DNA of 64,000 bases from Escherichia coli. GTDB lineage: Bacteria; Pseudomonadota; Gammaproteobacteria; Enterobacterales; Enterobacteriaceae. How positions within the stretch are numbered: the first letter of the stretch is position 1; every line of letters starts with the position of its first letter. Of this stretch, positions 43,997-60,858 are shown one piece after another. Location: NCBI RefSeq assembly GCF_044324785.1, contig NZ_CP172127.1; one strand, written 5' to 3'. Made by a program: the position numbers and the translations under genes. Under the pieces are notes generated by a model that saw only the letters and a list, made by a program, of their open reading frames with translations, ran no database searches and was not told where the DNA came from.

Positions 43997-45397
43997 ATGC
44001 CACATTCCTACGATTACGATGCCATAGTAATAGGTTCCGGCCCCGGCGGCGAAGGCGCTGCAATGGGCCTGGTTAAGCAAGGTGCGCGCGTCGCAGTTAT
44101 CGAGCGTTATCAAAATGTTGGCGGCGGTTGCACCCACTGGGGTACCATCCCGTCGAAAGCTCTCCGTCACGCCGTCAGCCGCATTATAGAATTTAATCAA
44201 AACCCACTTTACAGCGACCATTCGCGACTGCTCCGCTCTTCTTTTGCCGATATCCTTAACCATGCCGATAACGTGATTAATCAACAAACGCGCATGCGTC
44301 AGGGATTTTACGAACGTAATCACTGTGAAATATTGCAGGGAAACGCTCGCTTTGTTGACGAGCATACGCTGGCGCTGGATTGCCCGGACGGCAGCGTCGA
44401 AACACTAACCGCTGAAAAATTTGTTATTGCCTGTGGCTCTCGTCCATATCATCCAACAGATGTTGATTTCACCCATCCACGCATTTACGACAGCGACTCA
44501 ATTCTTAGCATGCACCACGAACCGCGCCATGTGCTGATTTACGGTGCTGGAGTGATCGGCTGTGAATATGCGTCGATCTTCCGCGGTATGGATGTAAAAG
44601 TGGATCTGATCAATACCCGCGATCGCCTGCTGGCATTTCTCGATCAAGAGATGTCAGATTCTCTCTCCTATCACTTCTGGAACAGTGGTGTAGTGATTCG
44701 TCACAACGAAGAGTACGAGAAGATCGAAGGCTGTGACGACGGTGTGATCATGCATCTGAAGTCGGGTAAAAAACTGAAAGCTGACTGCCTGCTCTATGCC
44801 AACGGTCGTACCGGTAATACCGATTCGCTGGCGTTACAGAACATTGGGCTGGAAACTGACAGTCGCGGACAGCTGAAGGTCAACAGCATGTATCAGACCG
44901 CACAGCCGCACGTTTACGCGGTGGGCGACGTGATTGGTTATCCGAGCCTGGCGTCGGCGGCCTATGACCAGGGGCGCATTGCCGCGCAGGCGCTGGTGAA
45001 AGGTGAAGCCACCGCTCATCTGATTGAAGATATCCCTACCGGCATTTACACCATCCCGGAAATCAGCTCTGTGGGCAAAACCGAACAGCAGCTGACCGCG
45101 ATGAAAGTGCCATATGAAGTGGGCCGCGCCCAGTTTAAACATCTGGCACGCGCACAAATCGTCGGCATGAACGTGGGCACGCTGAAAATTTTGTTCCATC
45201 GGGAAACGAAAGAGATTCTGGGTATTCACTGCTTTGGTGAGCGCGCTGCCGAAATTATTCATATCGGTCAGGCGATTATGGAACAGAAAGGTGGCGGCAA
45301 CACTATTGAGTACTTCGTCAACACCACCTTTAACTACCCGACGATGGCGGAAGCCTATCGGGTAGCTGCGTTAAACGGTTTAAACCGCCTTTTTTAA
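43997..45397 (+). CDS. sthA: soluble pyridine nucleotide transhydrogenase
   Basis: 466 aa [25 protein letters not shown]...; FAD/NAD Rossmann motifs. Confidence 0.96.
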
Positions 45398-46297
45398 CAC
45401 TTTATCGAAATGGCCATCCATTCTTGCGCGGATGGCCTCTGCCAGCTGCTCATAGCGGCTGCGCAGCGGTGAGCCAGGACGATAAACCAGCCCAATAGTG
45501 CGGCGTGGTTCCGGCTTAATGCACGGCAGATAAACAACCCCATCGCGTTTGCGCTCCGGCGGCACAGCCAGCGCTGGCAATAAAGTGATCCCGCTACCTG
45601 CCGCCACCATGTTGCGCAGCGTCTCCAGGCTGGTCGCGCGGAAGTGTGTATCTTCATCTGCCCCGGCTTCAAAGCAGAAACCCATTGCCTGATCGCGCAA
45701 ACAGTGACCGTCTTCCAGCATCAGCAGTTTTTCCCCTGCCAGATCGGCCATCGGTACGCATTCGCGGTTCGCCCACGGGTGATCTTCATAGATAGCCAGC
45801 AACATTGGCTCATCAAACAACGGCACTTCAATGAATGCTTCGCTCTCTTTCACCAGCGCGAGGATCACGCAATCGAGTTTGCCGCTGTCCAGTTGCGCCA
45901 GTAACTGGTGGGTCTGTGCTTCATGCAGATACATTTCCAGCTTTGGAAAGGTCTGGTGCAGCATCGGGATAATATGCGGTAGCAGGTACGGCCCGACCGT
46001 GGGAATCAAACCAATATGCAGCGGCCCGGACATGGTCTCACCCTGCTGGCTTGCCATCTCTTTAAGGACTTTCACCTCACGCAGCACGGTACGCGCCTGA
46101 TCCACCAGCAGCATTCCCGCCTGGGTGAACAACACTTTACGGCTGGTCCGCTCCAGCAACATCACGCCCAGCTCATCTTCCAGCTTACGAATTTGCCCGC
46201 TAAGCGTCGGCTGGCTAACGTGGCAGGAGTCTGCCGCACGCCGAAAATGGCGGTGTTCAGCCAATGCCACCAGGTACTCAAGATCACGAATATTCAT
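45380..46297 (-). CDS. oxyR: LysR-family hydrogen peroxide-inducible regulator
   Basis: 305 aa from [44 protein letters not shown] (internal Met of ORF ending 46342). Confidence 0.97.
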
Positions 46298-46392
46298 TAT
46301 CCATCCTCCATCGCCACGATAGTTCATGGCGATAGGTAGCATAGCAATGAACGATTATCCCTATCAAGCATTCTGACTGATAATTGCTCACA
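46298..46392. promoter_or_regulatory. oxyR-oxyS divergent promoter / OxyR binding region
   Basis: Intergenic region between divergent oxyR and oxyS starts. Confidence 0.7.
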
Positions 46393-46509
46393 GAAACGGA
46401 GCGGCACCTCTTTTAACCCTTGAAGTCACTGCCCGTTTCGAGAGTTTCTCAACTCGAATAACTAAAGCCAACGTGAACTTTTGCGGATCTCCAGGATCCG
46501 CTTTTTTTT
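46393..46509 (+). ncRNA. oxyS: OxyS small regulatory RNA
   Basis: GAAACGGAGCGGCACCTCTTTTAACCCTTGAAGTCACTGCCCGTTTCGAGAGTTTCTCAACTCGAATAACTAAAGCCAACGTGAACTTTTGCGGATCTCCAGGATCCGC followed by T8 terminator. Confidence 0.92.
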
Positions 46510-46548
46510 ATTCTACAGGCCCACAGCAAGAGAGCCTGATAGTAACAG

Positions 46549-47832
46549 TTACTCAATCCGATCTTTGACAATAAAGAAGTAACACAGCGCCCCGGTGAAC
46601 GTCACACAGGCCGCGATAACCAGCGCCAGATTAAACGAGTGCGTGGTATCCACTACCCAACCGGTTACGATCGGAGCAAAGGAAGCAAAAACAAAACTGC
46701 CAAAGTTTTGAATCCCGGCGATGGAAGCCACTTTTGTTTCTGACACCATCACCTGCACCAGTCCCCATGCAGATGTTCCCGCGAAATGCACGCAGAACAG
46801 CGCCATTGAGATAAACGCTACCGCCTGGGCTGGCGAGGAGGATTGCACGACCAGCAACGTGCCTAATGCCGACATCATCAAACCGCAGACAATAGCCGTT
46901 TTACGCGTCTTCGCCAGGTCGTAGCCTTTTTTCGCCAGCCGATCGACAACAATACCGTTAACCCACATCCCAACCGCCGCCGCGAGGAAAGGAATCGCCG
47001 CCACCCAACCGGTTTTCGCCAGACTGAAACCTTGTTCGGCCTGCAAATAACCGGGCAACCACGCGATGTAGAGCCAGCCTGTATAGTTGACGCCAGAGAA
47101 ACCTAAAATCATCCCCCAGGTTGTCCGATGCTTAAACAGCGCCAGCCACTCGCTAAATTGTAATTGTGGACGCGGTTTAACCGGCGCGGAGAGATAGGTC
47201 CGTTCTTCGTCGGTCAGGACAAACTGCGCCCGGTTGCGATACCACGCGTACCAACAGATCCCAACCAGAATCCCCGCCACGCCGATGATGACGAACATTG
47301 CCCGCCAGCCCCATGCCAGCTGCATCAATACAAGAGCAGGAGGCGCAATAGCCTGACCGATAACGGTAGATGAGTTAAAAATCCCCAGCGCCGTGCCGCG
47401 TTCTTTTTGCGCATACCAGTCGGTGATCGACTTTACTCCCGCAGGCATAAATGGCGCTTCGCCAATACTCAAACCAATACGCATTAAAATAAAGTGGCTA
47501 AAAGAATTAACCATTCCTGTTAATGCCTGCATTAATGACCAGAATATTAAGCCTGCGCCTAAAACTATTCGTGGGCCAAAGCGGTCTAGCAAAATACCGG
47601 AAGGGAGTTGTGAAAAACCATAAGACAGAGAAAAGGCAGAAAGCAAAACGCCAAATTCTGTCGCCGATAATCCTAACTCGCCACGAATCGCTTCGCCTGC
47701 CACGCTCAATGACGAACGGTCGAGGAAATTAACGATCCCCGCCATAAATAATAAAACCAGGGTCACTGTCTGAATACGACGAATCCGTTGCGGTTTATTA
47801 CCCGCAACACTGGTTGACACATCAACGTCCAT
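46549..47832 (-). CDS. MFS transporter, anion:cation symporter type (DgoT/ExuT/GudP-like acid-sugar permease)
   Basis: 427 aa, about 12 predicted TM helices; GLFLDRFG-like motif (LLDRFGPR); immediately downstream of the dehydratase gene. Confidence 0.85.
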   Translation of the reverse strand: MDVDVSTSVAGNKPQRIRRIQTVTLVLLFMAGIVNFLDRSSLSVAGEAIRGELGLSATEFGVLLSAFSLSYGFSQLPSGILLDRFGPRIVLGAGLIFWSLMQALTGMVNSFSHFILMRIGLSIGEAPFMPAGVKSITDWYAQKERGTALGIFNSSTVIGQAIAPPALVLMQLAWGWRAMFVIIGVAGILVGICWYAWYRNRAQFVLTDEERTYLSAPVKPRPQLQFSEWLALFKHRTTWGMILGFSGVNYTGWLYIAWLPGYLQAEQGFSLAKTGWVAAIPFLAAAVGMWVNGIVVDRLAKKGYDLAKTRKTAIVCGLMMSALGTLLVVQSSSPAQAVAFISMALFCVHFAGTSAWGLVQVMVSETKVASIAGIQNFGSFVFASFAPIVTGWVVDTTHSFNLALVIAACVTFTGALCYFFIVKDRIE

Positions 47833-48888
47833 TTTTAGCTCCTTGAGCGGAATTAATCGATTTGATGACTATTCAGAAAATAATTAAGCGAACCGTTATT
47901 ACCAGTTCCACAATGTGCCATCTTCCAGTCGTGCGACGGGGAGATACGCCGGGTCATACGGATATTTCGCCGCCAGTTTCTCATCGAAAGAAATACCCAG
48001 CCCCGGTTCATCGCCTGGGTGCATATAACCTTCATCGAAGCGCCAGCTATGCGGGAAGACTTCAAGCATTTGTTCGGAATAGCCCATGTACTCCTGAACG
48101 CCAAAGTTTGGCACCCAGAGGTCAAAATGCAGCGCCGCCGCATGACAAACAGGCGATAAATCTGAAGGGCCATGCGAACCGGTACGTACCTGATAAAGCG
48201 ATGCAAAATCGGCAATCCGTCGCATCCCGGTAATGCCGCCTGCATGGGTAATCGTCGTGCGAATATAGTCAATCAGCTGCTCTTCGATTAACTGCTTGCA
48301 GTCCCAGATACTGTTAAACACTTCACCGACCGCAATCGGCGTCACAGTATGCTGGCGAATCAGACGAAAACATTCCTGGTTCTCGGCAGGCGTCGGATCT
48401 TCCATCCAGAACAGGCGGTAATCCTCAATGCTCTTCCCAAAGCGCGCCGCTTCGATAGGAGTCAGGCGATGGTGCATGTCATGCAACAGATGTTCGTTAA
48501 AACCGAACTTATTACGCACCGCTTCGAATAACTTCGGCGTAAAATCGAGATACTTTTCTGAAGACCACAACTGCTCTTCTGGCCACAGGCCTTTGGTTGC
48601 CGGTTCATACGCCAGTCCTTTGCCCTTCGCCAGGCCATAAGTGGTTTGCATACCCGGTACACCACACTGCACACGAATCGCCTTAAAGCCCATCTGCTGG
48701 TGCTTTGCATAGTCTTCAAGGACTTCATCAATCGTACGCCCGGTGGTGTGGCAATAAACCATCACGCCTTCACGAGAAGCACCACCAAGCAGTTGATACA
48801 ATGGCATATTTGCCGCTTTTGCTTTGATATCCCACAACGCCATATCAATGGCAGAAATGGCTGACATCGTGACGGGGCCACGTCGCCA

Positions 48889-48897
48889 GTAAGCACC
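48889..48897. repeat. IS1 target-site duplication (left copy) GTAAGCACC
   Basis: Identical 9 bp at 49666..49674 directly flanking the other IS1 end. Confidence 0.95.
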
Positions 48898-48952
48898 GGT
48901 GATGCTGCCAACTTACTGATTTAGTGTATGATGGTGTTTTTGAGGTGCTCCA

Positions 48953-49228
48953 GTGGCTTCTGTTTCTATCAGCTGTCCCTCCTGTTCAGCTACTGACGGG
49001 GTGGTGCGTAACGGCAAAAGCACCGCCGGACATCAGCGCTATCTCTGCTCTCACTGCCGTAAAACATGGCAACTGCAGTTCACTTACACCGCTTCTCAAC
49101 CCGGTACGCACCAGAAAATCATTGATATGGCCATGAATGGCGTTGGATGCCGGGCAACTGCCCGCATTATGGGCGTTGGCCTCAACACGATTTTACGTCA
49201 CTTAAAAAACTCAGGCCGCAGTCGGTAA
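48953..49228 (+). CDS. insA: IS1 InsA
   Basis: 91 aa [43 protein letters not shown]... zinc-finger/HTH protein. Confidence 0.95.
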
Positions 49229-49650
49229 CCTCGCGCATACAGCCGGGCAGTGACGTCATCGTCTGCGCGGAAATGGACGAACAGTGGGGCTATGTCGGGG
49301 CTAAATCGCGCCAGCGCTGGCTGTTTTACGCGTATGACAGTCTCCGGAAGACGGTTGTTGCGCACGTATTCGGTGAACGCACTATGGCGACGCTGGGGCG
49401 TCTTATGAGCCTGCTGTCACCCTTTGACGTGGTGATATGGATGACGGATGGCTGGCCGCTGTATGAATCCCGCCTGAAGGGAAAGCTGCACGTAATCAGC
49501 AAGCGATATACGCAGCGAATTGAGCGGCATAACCTGAATCTGAGGCAGCACCTGGCACGGCTGGGACGGAAGTCGCTGTCGTTTTCAAAATCGGTGGAGC
49601 TGCATGACAAAGTCATCGGGCATTATCTGAACATAAAACACTATCAATAA
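49147..49650 (+). CDS. insB: IS1 InsB frame (expressed as InsAB' transposase by -1 frameshift)
   Basis: 167 aa ORF overlapping insA 3' end; A6C slippery motif TTAAAAAACTC at about 49198. Confidence 0.93.
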
Positions 49651-49665
49651 GTTGGAGTCATTACC

Positions 49666-49674
49666 GTAAGCACC
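49666..49674. repeat. IS1 target-site duplication (right copy) GTAAGCACC
   Basis: Matches 48889..48897. Confidence 0.95.
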
Positions 49675-50269
49675 TTTATAAAAGAATTGCCAGATATCTT
49701 CGATACGGCTGGCATCGCGGCCAATTAATTGTGGACAAAGATGATCTTTCAGATAAGAAGCGACCGACAATTCGCGCCCATTTAACGTGGCATCTCCTAA
49801 TCCACAAAGTCCGCTTTCAGTGGTTATTTTAAGCGTAACGAAATTACGTCCTGGGCAAGTAACAAAAACATCTGCAGCAATAATTTTCATTATTGCAATC
49901 TCCTGTGTTGTAAATAGACGCTTCAAACTTAATTTTACGCCTACTACCATACAAGAGAGAAAGAGCGATTATTCAACCGTGATCACATTAAAAACAAAAA
50001 TTCCCACCGAGGAACAAGAATATCCTCAAATTTCATCCACACTATTAATTACTATTGTTAAAACAACACGTTAAATAATCACATAACAAATTCCTCTAAG
50101 GAAGAGAGTCATAACAATAACAAATGATAATCATATTTTACTTAATTCAATACGTATCGATATGTTTATTTTAAAAAGATTTTTCGGAATGAGAGATGAA
50201 AAGAAGATACACAAACAGGAAGAAATACGATTAATATTGGTCGCGGTAAGGGTAGCCGTTCCTCCCTTC

Positions 50270-50376
50270 CGCAACCCATTAACCCTTGAAGTCACAGTCT
50301 ATTTCAGGCATTTCTCAACTCAAAATAACGAAGGCCAATGTGAACTTTGTGGCTCTCCAGGATCCGCTTTGTTTTC
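50270..50376 (+). ncRNA. degenerate oxyS-like sequence (pseudo-oxyS, 3' two-thirds incl. terminator hairpin)
   Basis: AACCCTTGAAGTCAC...TTTCTCAACTC.AAATAAC.AAGGCCAATGTGAACTTTGTGGCTCTCCAGGATCCGCTTTGTTTT aligns to oxyS 46410..46509 at roughly 80 percent identity. Confidence 0.7.
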
Positions 50377-50378
50377 CA

Positions 50379-51857
50379 TCAAACAACGGAACTCAGCGCA
50401 CTGGCAACCTGTTTAAAGCGAGCAAACCGTCGCCTGAGCATGTGTGCTTTTTCTACATTCGGTTCAAGACGAATCACGTTGAGATGCGTGGCCTTCATGG
50501 CCTGTTTGAATCCAGAATAAGCCCCTCCTCCTACTGCCGCACACATTGCAGCCGCTCTACAACCTGACTGTTCAATATCGACAATTTCAAGAGGCATGTT
50601 GCTGGCATCACAAAACATCTGCATCCAGATTCTGGAATGCGTTGGCCCGCCAGAGAAACGAATCGTTTGCAATGACTTATCAATCTCAATAAGACGGTCC
50701 TGATGCAACAAATGAGAAAAGACAATGCCCTGATAAATCGCGTACACCAAATCTTCTCTTTTATGATGCCCACACAGCCCCAAAAATCCCCCGCTTAATG
50801 CCTCATGGTAATTCGAGCCAAACAACCACGGGAAAAAGAGAATATCATTCTGCTTCTCATACCCTCGTTCCACCCACTCATTAATCACCCGATAGCTGTC
50901 AGGAAGATCCGGTAAAAATTGCTGCAAGAACCATGTCAAATTACTGGCTGATGTAGGGCTTCCCTCATGGGCGAAAAATGTACCTGGAATGCTAAATTTC
51001 CCCCATACATAGGGATAATCAGAAGGAATAATGCGATCAAAGATACGCGTTGCAATTGACCAGGTGCCAGCAACCGCACTTAACGTTGTACTGTCATAGA
51101 TGCCAGAAGTGAGCGCCGCACCAACGACATCAAAAACACCACCAAAAACAGGCGTTCCGGCGAGAAGCCCACATTGGCTGGCTGCTTCAGATGTCACAAC
51201 CCCTGCTAAATCAGCGGAGCCAATAATATCGGGAACCTTACCCGCAACTTCCTTAATCTCAAATAGGCGAAAAAGTTCAGCATCATAAGCACTGGTATAT
51301 TGATTATAAAAATTACTGCCTGAAATATTGGTTTCTTCACAAGCCAGTTTGCCAGTAAGCCGTGAACGTATGTAATCATGAACCATCAAAATGGTTCCGA
51401 TGCGGCCATAATTGTCAGTCTCATGTTTTTTCAACCAATGCAATAGTGCTACAGGGTGCGATGGCCAGAGCTGTTGCAGACTACGGTGATAGCTTTCGCG
51501 GTCAATTCCTTGTTCTTTCCAGCTTGCAACCAGTTGTTGTGCGCGAGAATCAGAGGAAACAATGCCGTATCGTAAGGGCTTACCTTGCCGGTCGAGCAGG
51601 TACAAACCTTTACCATGAGCAGAAAAACTGATGCCATCAATCTGACTCGCAGTAATATTGTTCTCTGACATCGACAGTGAAATGACCTGGCACGTTACCT
51701 TCCATAACGCCTCCATGTCGCGTTCGCAAAAACCAGGACATGGGCTTAACAGAGGTAACACTTGCGAAGAGACACCTATTTCACGTCCTTCTGCCGTATA
51801 AATTCCCGCTTTGGTTTCTGTACCACCTAAATCGACACCAATAAAATACCGCTCCAT
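50379..51857 (-). CDS. FGGY-family carbohydrate kinase, L-xylulokinase (LyxK/SgbK)-like
   Basis: 492 aa; N-terminal GVDLGGT, conserved HEGSPTSASNLTWF, FFPWLFGSN, GGPTHSRIWMQMF blocks resembling E. coli LyxK. Confidence 0.85.
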   Translation of the reverse strand: MERYFIGVDLGGTETKAGIYTAEGREIGVSSQVLPLLSPCPGFCERDMEALWKVTCQVISLSMSENNITASQIDGISFSAHGKGLYLLDRQGKPLRYGIVSSDSRAQQLVASWKEQGIDRESYHRSLQQLWPSHPVALLHWLKKHETDNYGRIGTILMVHDYIRSRLTGKLACEETNISGSNFYNQYTSAYDAELFRLFEIKEVAGKVPDIIGSADLAGVVTSEAASQCGLLAGTPVFGGVFDVVGAALTSGIYDSTTLSAVAGTWSIATRIFDRIIPSDYPYVWGKFSIPGTFFAHEGSPTSASNLTWFLQQFLPDLPDSYRVINEWVERGYEKQNDILFFPWLFGSNYHEALSGGFLGLCGHHKREDLVYAIYQGIVFSHLLHQDRLIEIDKSLQTIRFSGGPTHSRIWMQMFCDASNMPLEIVDIEQSGCRAAAMCAAVGGGAYSGFKQAMKATHLNVIRLEPNVEKAHMLRRRFARFKQVASALSSVV

Positions 51858-57489: not shown

Positions 57490-58299
57490 TTATTTATCAA
57501 CCTCCACAATGTTTAATTGTGGAAATTGTGTTCGATACCGAGTATCTGTACAAACATTAGTCACCAGAATATCGATTTCATCCAGCGTGCATATTTTACT
57601 AAATGCATACTGTTCAAACTTACTGGAGTCGACCAGCAATATTTTTTGTCCTGACACCTGAAGCATCACCTGTTTAAGTCTGGCATTAATTTCACTGCCA
57701 TCGCGGACACCATTCCCCAGATTCAACCCCTGGCATGAAAAGAAAAAACTGTTGATTTGAAAATTTCGGATCGCCCCCTCTGCAACCGGGCCATGAAAAT
57801 CATCATGTCGCTCAGAATACTCACCACCGATACCAATAATTCGAACTCGATCACGGCAAGCCAACGCCTGAATTATCCGTAATGAATTTGTAACTACAGT
57901 AACATCTATATCGGGAATTTGACGAGCTAAAAACCAACAAGTACTACTGTTATCCATTAAAATACAATCACCAGGGTGAATAAATTGCAATGCGGCCTTC
58001 GCAATTCTGGCTTTTATATCAGGATTTTCTTCAGTCCGTTTACGGAATGATTCCGCACGATCGATACTATTATCTTGCCACGCATTATCGGCGAGCATAA
58101 CCGGAGCGCTATCAGATGAATCCAGAGCGACCGCGCCACCAAAGCTACGGATTAACTTTTTGTTGCGCTCCAGTACCGTTAAATCCCGACGAATTGTCTC
58201 AGGAGACGCTTTAAATAATCGTGATAATTCTGTTACCTGTACAGCACCTTGTTTTTGTACATGTGCGCATATCATTTTATGGCGCTCTGCCTGCAACAT
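57490..58299 (-). CDS. DeoR-family transcriptional regulator (sugar-phosphate sensing type)
   Basis: 269 aa; N-terminal HTH (VTELSRLFKASPETIRRDLTVLE) and C-terminal DeoR-C sugar-phosphate binding domain. Confidence 0.85.
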   Translation of the reverse strand: MLQAERHKMICAHVQKQGAVQVTELSRLFKASPETIRRDLTVLERNKKLIRSFGGAVALDSSDSAPVMLADNAWQDNSIDRAESFRKRTEENPDIKARIAKAALQFIHPGDCILMDNSSTCWFLARQIPDIDVTVVTNSLRIIQALACRDRVRIIGIGGEYSERHDDFHGPVAEGAIRNFQINSFFFSCQGLNLGNGVRDGSEINARLKQVMLQVSGQKILLVDSSKFEQYAFSKICTLDEIDILVTNVCTDTRYRTQFPQLNIVEVDK

Positions 58300-58752
58300 A
58301 GTATCGGTCCGTTATTATCAAATTAGCATGCTTATATAATTAACTGTTCCCTCATAAAATAAAGTGATAGGAATCAAGATTCATTTTATAAATATAATCG
58401 CAAACAGAAATGGTGATCTTTACCACAAATTAAATTGAGAATATTCTACTATTGGACATTTTTTTGAGATATACGTCACTAAATAAGCTTTATTCTGTCA
58501 CCTGACGAAAAATTTAAATGCAAAAACAAAAATAATCGGGCATAGCAATCTCTTCCATTCATGACCGAATACGCCCGAATAAAACCGTTTACGCCCACTT
58601 ACCCTCTTTCATTGCCTTCTTACATGCCTTGAATATTTTACATTTCTTATATTCAGCGTAATTTAGGCAACATAATTTACGAGCAAAAATAGCCAAAACC
58701 CAAAAGTTAAAGTTTATTTATATAATACATACAGATTATCGTGGAGTTAAAA

Positions 58753-59484: not shown

Positions 59485-60858
59485 TTACCCCAACCGCGCC
59501 CTTGCAAAAGCAATCGCCTGCGCCACCTGCTGCGGTGAGACGCCGCCTTTTGCAGCACGCTTGTCGAGGCACGATTGCAGCGACAGAATCGGATAGACAT
59601 CTTCGCCAATCACCTGGCTGAATTTCTGCAACTCACTGAGCGGCAGATCTTCCAGCGGTTTGCCCTGACGAATGGCTTCCACCACCGCTTCACCAACAAT
59701 ATGGTGCGCCTCGCGGAACGGTACGCCTTTCGCCACCAGGTAATCCGCCAGTTCAGTGGCGTTCGCATACCCCTGCTGCGCCGCTTCCTGGCAACGTGGA
59801 CATTTCACCTGAATGCCGTCCAGCACCAGCGCCGCCATATGCAAGCAGTCCAGCCAGGTATCGAGCGCGTCGAACAGACCTTCTTTGTCTTCCTGCATAT
59901 CTTTGTTGTAAGCCAGCGGCAAACCTTTCAGCGTCATCATCATGCCGGTTAACGCCCCCTGCACCCGACCGCATTTACCGCGAATCAGCTCCAGCGCATC
60001 CGGGTTTTTCTTCTGCGGCATTAATGATGAACCTGAAGTCACGCGGTCAGAAAGCTCCACAAATCCCGCTTCGCCGGTGTTAAAGAAAATCAGATCTTCA
60101 GCAAAACGCGACAGATGCACCATGCCGATAGCGGCAGCAGAAAGCAGTTCCAGCACATGATCACGGTCAGAAACGCTGTCGAGACTGTTACGGGTCGCCG
60201 AAGCAAAGCCCAGCCAGCCTGCTAACTGTTCACGGTCGATTTCATAGGCCGTTCCCGCCAGTGCGCCACAGCCTAACGGGCTGACATCCAGACGCTTAAG
60301 CGCGTCCTGCAAACGGCTTTCATCACGCGCCAGCATCTCAACGTAGGCCAGGCACCAGTGCGCGAAAGTCACCGGTTGAGCGCGTTGCAGGTGGGTGTAA
60401 CCTGGCATTACCGCGTCCTGATTGTTTTGTGCGGTTTCCACCAGCGCCGATTGCAGCTGCCGGTTAGCCGTCAGTAACTCGCTAACGGTATCTTTGCACC
60501 ACAGTTTCAGGTCAGTCGCGACCTGGTCATTACGGCTACGCCCGGTGTGCAGTTTTTTGCCTAACTGACCCACTTTGTCGATCAATTTGCCTTCCACCCA
60601 GCTATGGATATCTTCGGCGTCGCTTTCAAGGATTTGTTGTGGCCTGGCGCGAACATCTTCCAGCAGCACGTTCAGCGCCTCTTCCAGTTGCGCCTGTTCT
60701 TCTGCGGTCAACACACCGACCGTTACCAGGGCTTTGGACCAGGCCACAGAGCCAACAATATCCTGCTCCGCCAGACGGTAATCAAAGCGCAGTGAGTCGT
60801 TGAATTGTTTGAACCGTTGATCTGCTGCCTGGGTAAAACGCCCGCCCCAAAGTGCCAT
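59485..60858 (-). CDS. argH: argininosuccinate lyase
   Basis: 457 aa [44 protein letters not shown]... Confidence 0.97.

Follow-up and report, generated by a model that had tools for sequence, protein, structure and literature searches.

The closest described relative of the control region analysed here is the promoter of rspA in Escherichia coli K-12. There, the GntR-family repressor RspR (YdfH) gives a 31-bp footprint with the palindrome ATACnnGTAT at its centre, and the transcription start was mapped by primer extension to a C lying 30 nt before the ATG (PMC8249747). The enzyme encoded downstream is of the same kind as ManD, whose copy at our locus is 91-94% identical to RspA/ManD-type proteins of many Enterobacterales. 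The settings of the two genes differ, however: rspA belongs to a ynfA-rspAB locus, has rspB as its downstream partner, and has the ynfA stop codon and a terminator directly upstream of a conserved TGTGA motif, whereas the manD considered here sits between oxyS and argH, is accompanied by an MFS transporter gene, and carries about 250 bp of AT-rich DNA upstream of the same motif.

The window, that is, the whole stretch of 64,000 nt that was analysed, has the gene order of an E. coli-type chromosome segment. In it, sthA (43997-45397, + strand), oxyR (about 45380-46297, - strand) and the genuine oxyS (46393-46502, + strand; Rfam score 139.5 bits) are followed by a two-gene module on the - strand (46549-49890, as delimited from ORFs and from the RefSeq annotation of other strains). 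This module consists of the MFS transporter gene (46549-47832) and of manD, which lies in two pieces (47899-48897 and 49666-49890) with a 768-bp IS1 inserted between them (48898-49665, + strand). An intergenic region (49891-50378) separates manD from an FGGY kinase gene (50379-51857, - strand), beyond which come the remainder of a sugar kinase/epimerase/ABC/DeoR/araD cluster (- strand, araD on the + strand) and argH (59485-60858, - strand). The intergenic region contains an OxyS-like relic (50246-50368, + strand; Rfam RF00035) that bounds the spacer and lies outside the promoter region. ManD was recognised by the NCBIfam ManD equivalog model with 732.9 bits (cut-off 550), and the transporter was closest to D-galactonate-type transporters, at a score of 269 bits that is below the cut-off of that model. 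An orthologue of the island transporter (84-88% identical) lies beside manD inside the ynfA-rspA locus of Lelliottia, an Enterobacter sp. and Pluralibacter (L027 3563-3889, L005 2066-2392 and L018 2068-2394), an arrangement that is a possible source of the E. coli two-gene module. A 108-aa ORF found upstream of manD/MFS in these genera was considered as an ancestor of the spacer and rejected, as it is ynfA of the rspA loci and has no similarity to it.

The original prediction had placed an AT-rich spacer at 49951-50269, between the start of the dehydratase gene and the OxyS-like sequence. The AT-richness is real and exceeds chance fluctuation: the GC content of this stretch is 31.7%, against 51.1% for the whole window, no more than 0.46% of all 319-nt windows in the 64 kb reach so low a value, and the lowest of all (28.8%, starting at 49864) overlaps it. 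The left boundary was wrong. The mechanical ORF of manD begins at an in-frame ATG at 49950, which had been taken as the start of the gene, but the true ManD start codon is the ATG at 49888-49890 (- strand), because three lines of evidence agree: RefSeq annotates the same gene in other strains (L001 and L002) from the equivalent of 49890, a Shine-Dalgarno sequence AGGAG (49900-49904, - strand) lies 9-13 nt upstream of this codon, and the start residue is identical in all 80 orthologues retrieved from other Enterobacterales. The spacer accordingly begins at 49891, and a boundary at 49951 would fall within the predicted -35 element. On the right, the boundary was roughly correct, in that the Rfam match to OxyS begins at 50246 and strong repeat identity with oxyS begins at 50279. 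From the ManD start codon to the relic, the AT-rich non-coding spacer thus measures 355 bp (49891-50245) and has 30.4% GC. A second very AT-rich intergenic region of the window (58300-58750, 30.6% GC) lies between the DeoR-family regulator gene and araD, and is presumably their divergent promoter region.

The spacer does hold the promoter of the manD-MFS module, as had been argued from its position, and the evidence is homology to the experimentally mapped rspA promoter. A blastn search of the spacer against 80 manD/rspA loci of other genera returned only the E. coli island copies and a marginal 31-nt match, and the homology was visible only after anchoring on the conserved core. When the 150 nt upstream of the start codons were lined up, the box ACTTGTATGGTAGT was common to them, and an anchored comparison was made on GTATGGTAG in 78 Enterobacterales rspA/manD promoters. 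The distance from this anchor to the ATG is 61-64 nt in most of the 78 promoters, up to 75 nt in a minority, and 62 nt here, where the rspA-type core pattern CTTGTATGGTAGT(A/T)G occupies 49941-49955. TGTGA is found at -35 or -36 from the anchor in 75 of the 78, and at -35 in the window. The core CTTGTATGGTAGTAG is kept in these 78 promoters and unchanged in 19 distinct sequences of the spacer, and 35 nt separate the -10 hexamer from the ATG in the rspA and manD promoters alike. On this comparison, the proximal 105 bp or so (49891-49995) read as a paralogous copy of the rspA promoter.

By the geometry of rspA, transcription of manD is predicted to start at a C at about position 49920 (- strand), 30 nt before the ATG, although the exact site is known only by positional homology to the mapped rspA start. 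The promoter would be a weak sigma-70 promoter with a -35 hexamer TTGTAT (49949-49954) and a -10 hexamer TAAGTT (49926-49931), the latter being the counterpart of TAGATT/TAAATT in rspA promoters; TAAAAT (49932-49937) is an alternative -10, and all three lie on the - strand. The predicted hexamers are separated by 17 nt, as against 18 nt in rspA, and are followed by a 30-nt leader containing the AGGAG. Of their 12 positions, 6 agree with the consensus (7 in rspA), so that a consensus promoter scan found no strong sigma-70 site. Because the start codon had been misplaced, the -10 hexamer and the start fall outside 49951-50269, and the proposal that the promoter lies within those coordinates is correct only in part.

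The operator/-35 core TCT-CTTGTATGGTAGTAG (49941-49958, - strand), delimited by comparison with the 78 promoters, contains the core that in rspA lies inside the RspR footprint and overlaps the -35. At the position of the RspR box (49949-49958, - strand), the window reads TCTCTTGTAT instead of ATACTTGTAT, which is present in 71 of the 78 promoters; the palindrome ATACnnGTAT over the -35 has thus lost its left half, with TCTC for ATAC. An exact ATACNNGTAT was absent from the whole 64-kb window. Since the palindrome is not intact and no such sequence occurs in the window, control by RspR may have been lost; repression in trans through an operator with a degenerate left half-site is possible, not assured. 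The second box of rspA promoters, TTTTTTGATC(A), which lies between the TGTGA and RspR boxes, is also gone, and AATAATCGCTC stands in its place. In the rspA promoters of Enterobacterales (loci L005-L084), the region about 95-45 nt before the conserved core, ahead of the RspR box, holds two GATC boxes with a spacing of about 21 nt, TTTTGTGATC and TTTTTTGATC(A). Both double as Dam sites, and the island manD promoter keeps the first alone.

The TGTGA box (TGTGATCACGGTTGAA; 49972-49987, - strand, with TGTGA at 49983-49987) resembles a CRP half-site. Its left half is perfect and its right half (TTGAA) is poor, giving three mismatches to TGTGA-N6-TCACA, and a search for this palindrome at two or fewer mismatches did not return it; the right half-site is not conserved in the orthologues either. 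Relative to the inferred start, the site is centred at about -59.5 to -60.5, and class I CRP sites lie near -61.5. An activator bound at this box would be needed for transcription, and CRP would be the obvious candidate, a proposal that draws on what is generally known of sugar-acid operons. We found no experimental statement of CRP acting on rspA in the open-access literature, and CRP at this box is only a guess.

The original prediction left the choice between constitutive expression and a regulator encoded elsewhere. A constitutive promoter is unlikely: hexamers that match the consensus at half of their positions, together with the failure to find any strong promoter-like site, fit dependence on an activator. 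The module itself encodes no regulator, and control in trans was a sensible reading, now with RspR and a CRP-like activator as plausible candidates from sequence. The accompanying statement that no regulator is encoded nearby needs to be qualified. A gene for a DeoR-family regulator (57490-58299) does lie 7 kb away, but it belongs to the kinase/ABC cluster, and 1719 genomes carry manD-MFS without it.

These genomes belong to one of two arrangements. About one in three E. coli genomes (1864 of 5426 complete genomes) has the manD-MFS module, located between oxyS and argH. The order manD, spacer, OxyS-like relic and kinase cluster is found in 145-146 of the 5426; no more than 146 genomes have the relic and the kinase cluster, at least 145 of them together with manD-MFS. 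In the further 1719 genomes, manD-MFS and the spacer are followed by a REP element and argH, with neither relic nor kinase cluster. In this common two-gene haplotype, the REP element (L003 8578-8658) replaces the relic; it gave a weak match to naRNA4 (27.9 bits), and no Rfam match to OxyS was found there. The two haplotypes cease to be homologous within a few bases after the relic begins. With a single exception, a genome that has the spacer has one copy of it; every copy is chromosomal, and searches of phages and genuine plasmids did not find it. An origin in a mobile element was rejected on this basis: there was no phage match, and the sole matches labelled as plasmids were chromosome-like records of 1.0 Mb and 4.8 Mb.

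Conservation along the spacer was assessed in an alignment of eight E. coli haplotypes chosen by BLAST, extended to 19 distinct sequences by adding metagenome contigs. Among the eight haplotypes, 98 of the 105 columns of the proximal part (49891-49995) are invariant. Further from manD, identity among haplotypes is 69-94% at 49996-50030, falls to 44-56% between the two haplotype families at 50031-50057, rises again at 50058-50098, where 36 of 41 columns are invariant, and is 56-59% between the families in the distal AT-rich segment (50099-50245), which has no recognisable feature. The 49996-50030 segment holds an inverted repeat, GAGGA-N9-TCCTC (50009-50027), with arms that are conserved and a loop that varies among haplotypes; the scan did not call it as a terminator. 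In the distal 250 bp or so, chiefly over 50031-50056 and 50099-50245, the spacers of the two families, one with the relic and the kinase cluster and the other with the REP element, are about 45% apart, while their manD genes differ by 1.8-2.1%, with almost all changes synonymous. This distal DNA evolves fast. Two of the sequences (L085 and L095) resemble mosaics of the two spacer families, and the pattern suggests that the alleles are old or that one was imported from a diverged relative, and that recombination followed. The sequence AAATGATAATCATATTT on the + strand (50120-50141), present in the kinase-cluster haplotype only, agrees by eye with the Fur-box consensus at about 13 of 19 positions, probably by chance in DNA so rich in AT.

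Within this diverged DNA stands a near-invariant element of 34 nt (50057-50090; TTTGTTATGTGATTATTTAACGTGTTGTTTTAAC in the sense of manD), about -137 to -170 from the predicted start. The block around it has 36 of 41 invariant columns, against 86 of 179 in its flanks (Fisher p = 1.6e-6), and the probability of an identical 34-nt run in DNA that is 57% identical is about 1e-6. The element contains one TGTGA and two TTTAAC repeats, and we could not assign it to a known operator. A metagenome scan found it on 22 contigs, 21 of which also show the manD promoter, the remaining one being cut at its end; other contexts for the element were therefore rejected. We regard the 34-nt element as a probable binding site, a candidate on sequence grounds, for a factor of unspecified specificity. 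A further step would be to take the element, with or without the inverted repeat at 50009-50027, as the operator of an additional trans-acting regulator or as a looping site, and the two deeply diverged spacer haplotypes as regulatory alleles of long standing, kept separate according to whether the kinase cluster lies next to them. This is a speculative proposal to which we give a low probability; if true, the island ManD would answer a signal different from that of rspA.

Two other accounts of the AT-rich DNA are each held to be rather unlikely. According to one, everything beyond the promoter of about 105 bp is functionless junction DNA, left when manD-MFS arrived beside oxyS and since drifting towards AT. 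The absence of any ORF, family match or structure agrees with this, as do the uniqueness of the stretch to this locus, with no copy on real plasmids or phages, and the 44-59% identity of the distal segments between families whose manD genes differ by about 2%, mostly at synonymous sites. Against it stand the 34-nt run, identical between families inside DNA of about 57% identity and very unlikely to have persisted without constraint, and the inverted repeat, whose arms are kept while the loop varies. According to the other, the AT-rich stretch marks acquired DNA coated by H-NS, and silencing is the main control of the module. The spacer does share with the H-NS-bound promoters of enterobacterial accessory islands its low GC content, its position upstream of accessory genes and its variability among strains; it is AT-rich enough to bind H-NS and coincides in part with the stretch of lowest GC in the 64 kb, the module is an accessory one, and the spacer has one nucleation-like site, TCGATATGTT (50157-50166), with two mismatches to TCGATAAATT. 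However, the genes controlled here are not AT-rich themselves, since low GC of the H-NS type is confined to the spacer (30.4%) and both the MFS gene (51.4%) and the main part of manD (51.7%) are genome-like; the nucleation motif is at chance level, for where 62 +/- 8 matches are expected the window has 84, one of them in the spacer; and the strong constraint on the proximal promoter and on the 34-nt element argues for specific regulators. The argument from AT-richness to xenogeneic silencing, raised in the original prediction, is therefore weak. The distal DNA may additionally bind nucleoid proteins such as H-NS, and such binding would be compatible with an rspA-type promoter, as a complement to it rather than a replacement.

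Far less probable than either is that the spacer conceals a gene for a small protein or a small RNA that has escaped annotation. The description of the stretch as ORF-free is right biologically and not mechanically: ORFs of 31-95 aa overlap it, and those of 31-54 aa, like the 34-nt block, which could in principle be an sRNA seed, could be cited for a hidden gene. Yet none of the ORFs listed in the eight spacer haplotypes is conserved or matched by a family, none is common to both haplotype families, and stops interrupt all useful frames of the conserved block. Six-frame translations of the spacer had no Pfam match even at E <= 10, Rfam at E <= 1 over 48500-51500 matched OxyS alone, folding of the two strands was no better than that of shuffled controls (z = -1.04 and -1.05), and the scan found no terminator-like site inside the spacer. 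A conserved small gene was what the original prediction had named as evidence against itself; neither a conserved frame nor a conserved structure nor a family match, by any of which a small protein or sRNA would be recognised, came to light, and the non-coding reading holds. An equally improbable idea is that the spacer is the decayed control region of the relic, either an oxyS promoter with its OxyR operator or the beginning of an oxyR or peroxidase gene. Like the oxyR-oxyS control region, the spacer adjoins an OxyS-like sequence in the same orientation, directly upstream of it on the + strand; a weak similarity to the -10 region of oxyS reaches about 20 nt upstream of the relic, and OxyS itself arose from the 3' end of a peroxidase gene (PMC8825220). 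The similarity ends there, however, in an alignment with the real oxyR-oxyS region (46290-46560), and the OxyR tetrad motif was found only at the genuine site (46319-46355) and not in the spacer; on these two results the idea was rejected. In addition, LysR, Redoxin and Glutaredoxin signals were absent in every frame of the spacer, manD and not oxyR lies on its other side, and the same spacer is present in the 1719 genomes that have no relic. The relic itself scores 41.1 bits, below the RF00035 gathering score of 75, and no OxyR motif was found upstream of it. As direct repeats, oxyS (46393-46509) and the relic (50246-50375) are 80-90% identical over about 97 nt; they bracket the MFS gene, manD and the spacer, a layout such as would be left if a circle with an oxyS homologue had integrated by a single crossover.

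The rspA-type promoter preferred here no longer serves the working operon that had been assumed, which is broken by the IS1 inside manD. The element is inserted at about codon 72, 216 nt into the gene, and is flanked by 9-bp duplications GTAAGCACC (48889-48897 and 49666-49674). With IS1 removed, manD is a complete ORF of 404 codons that differs by one base from that of strain N3; this single-base difference indicates that the insertion is recent, and the IS1-manD junction was absent from all 5426 complete E. coli genomes. As a result of the insertion, the promoter now drives only a fragment, and the transcript is predicted to run for about 250 nt and then into IS1 in the antisense direction. 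In E. coli N3, the closest genome (L001 11010-12224; 99.7-100% identical around the spacer), manD carries no IS1 and is broken by an internal stop, so that the gene has been inactivated twice independently in one lineage. In strain PM7 (NZ_CP073996.1, 728512-728628), an IS1 occupies the corresponding point of an rspA-like gene, the identity being 92.6%.

We consider it probable, with good but not full confidence, that the locus as a whole is explained by an rspA-type control region with a weak, activator-dependent promoter, by fast-evolving distal DNA, and by a manD split by IS1. The spacer is an unremarkable control region, AT-rich and without genes, that precedes a sugar-acid dehydratase/transporter pair; it is regulatory intergenic DNA of the usual kind, with a promoter of the rspA type and one unexplained detail, the 34-nt element. 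For this particular stretch, the consequences go little beyond annotation, in that the start codon of ManD is corrected, the manD copy is a recent pseudogene, and the promoter has no working operon to drive. For E. coli more widely, the accessory manD-MFS module would carry its own rspA-type promoter, which offers RspR and a CRP-like activator as concrete candidate regulators, and one short conserved element is singled out in the manD spacer.
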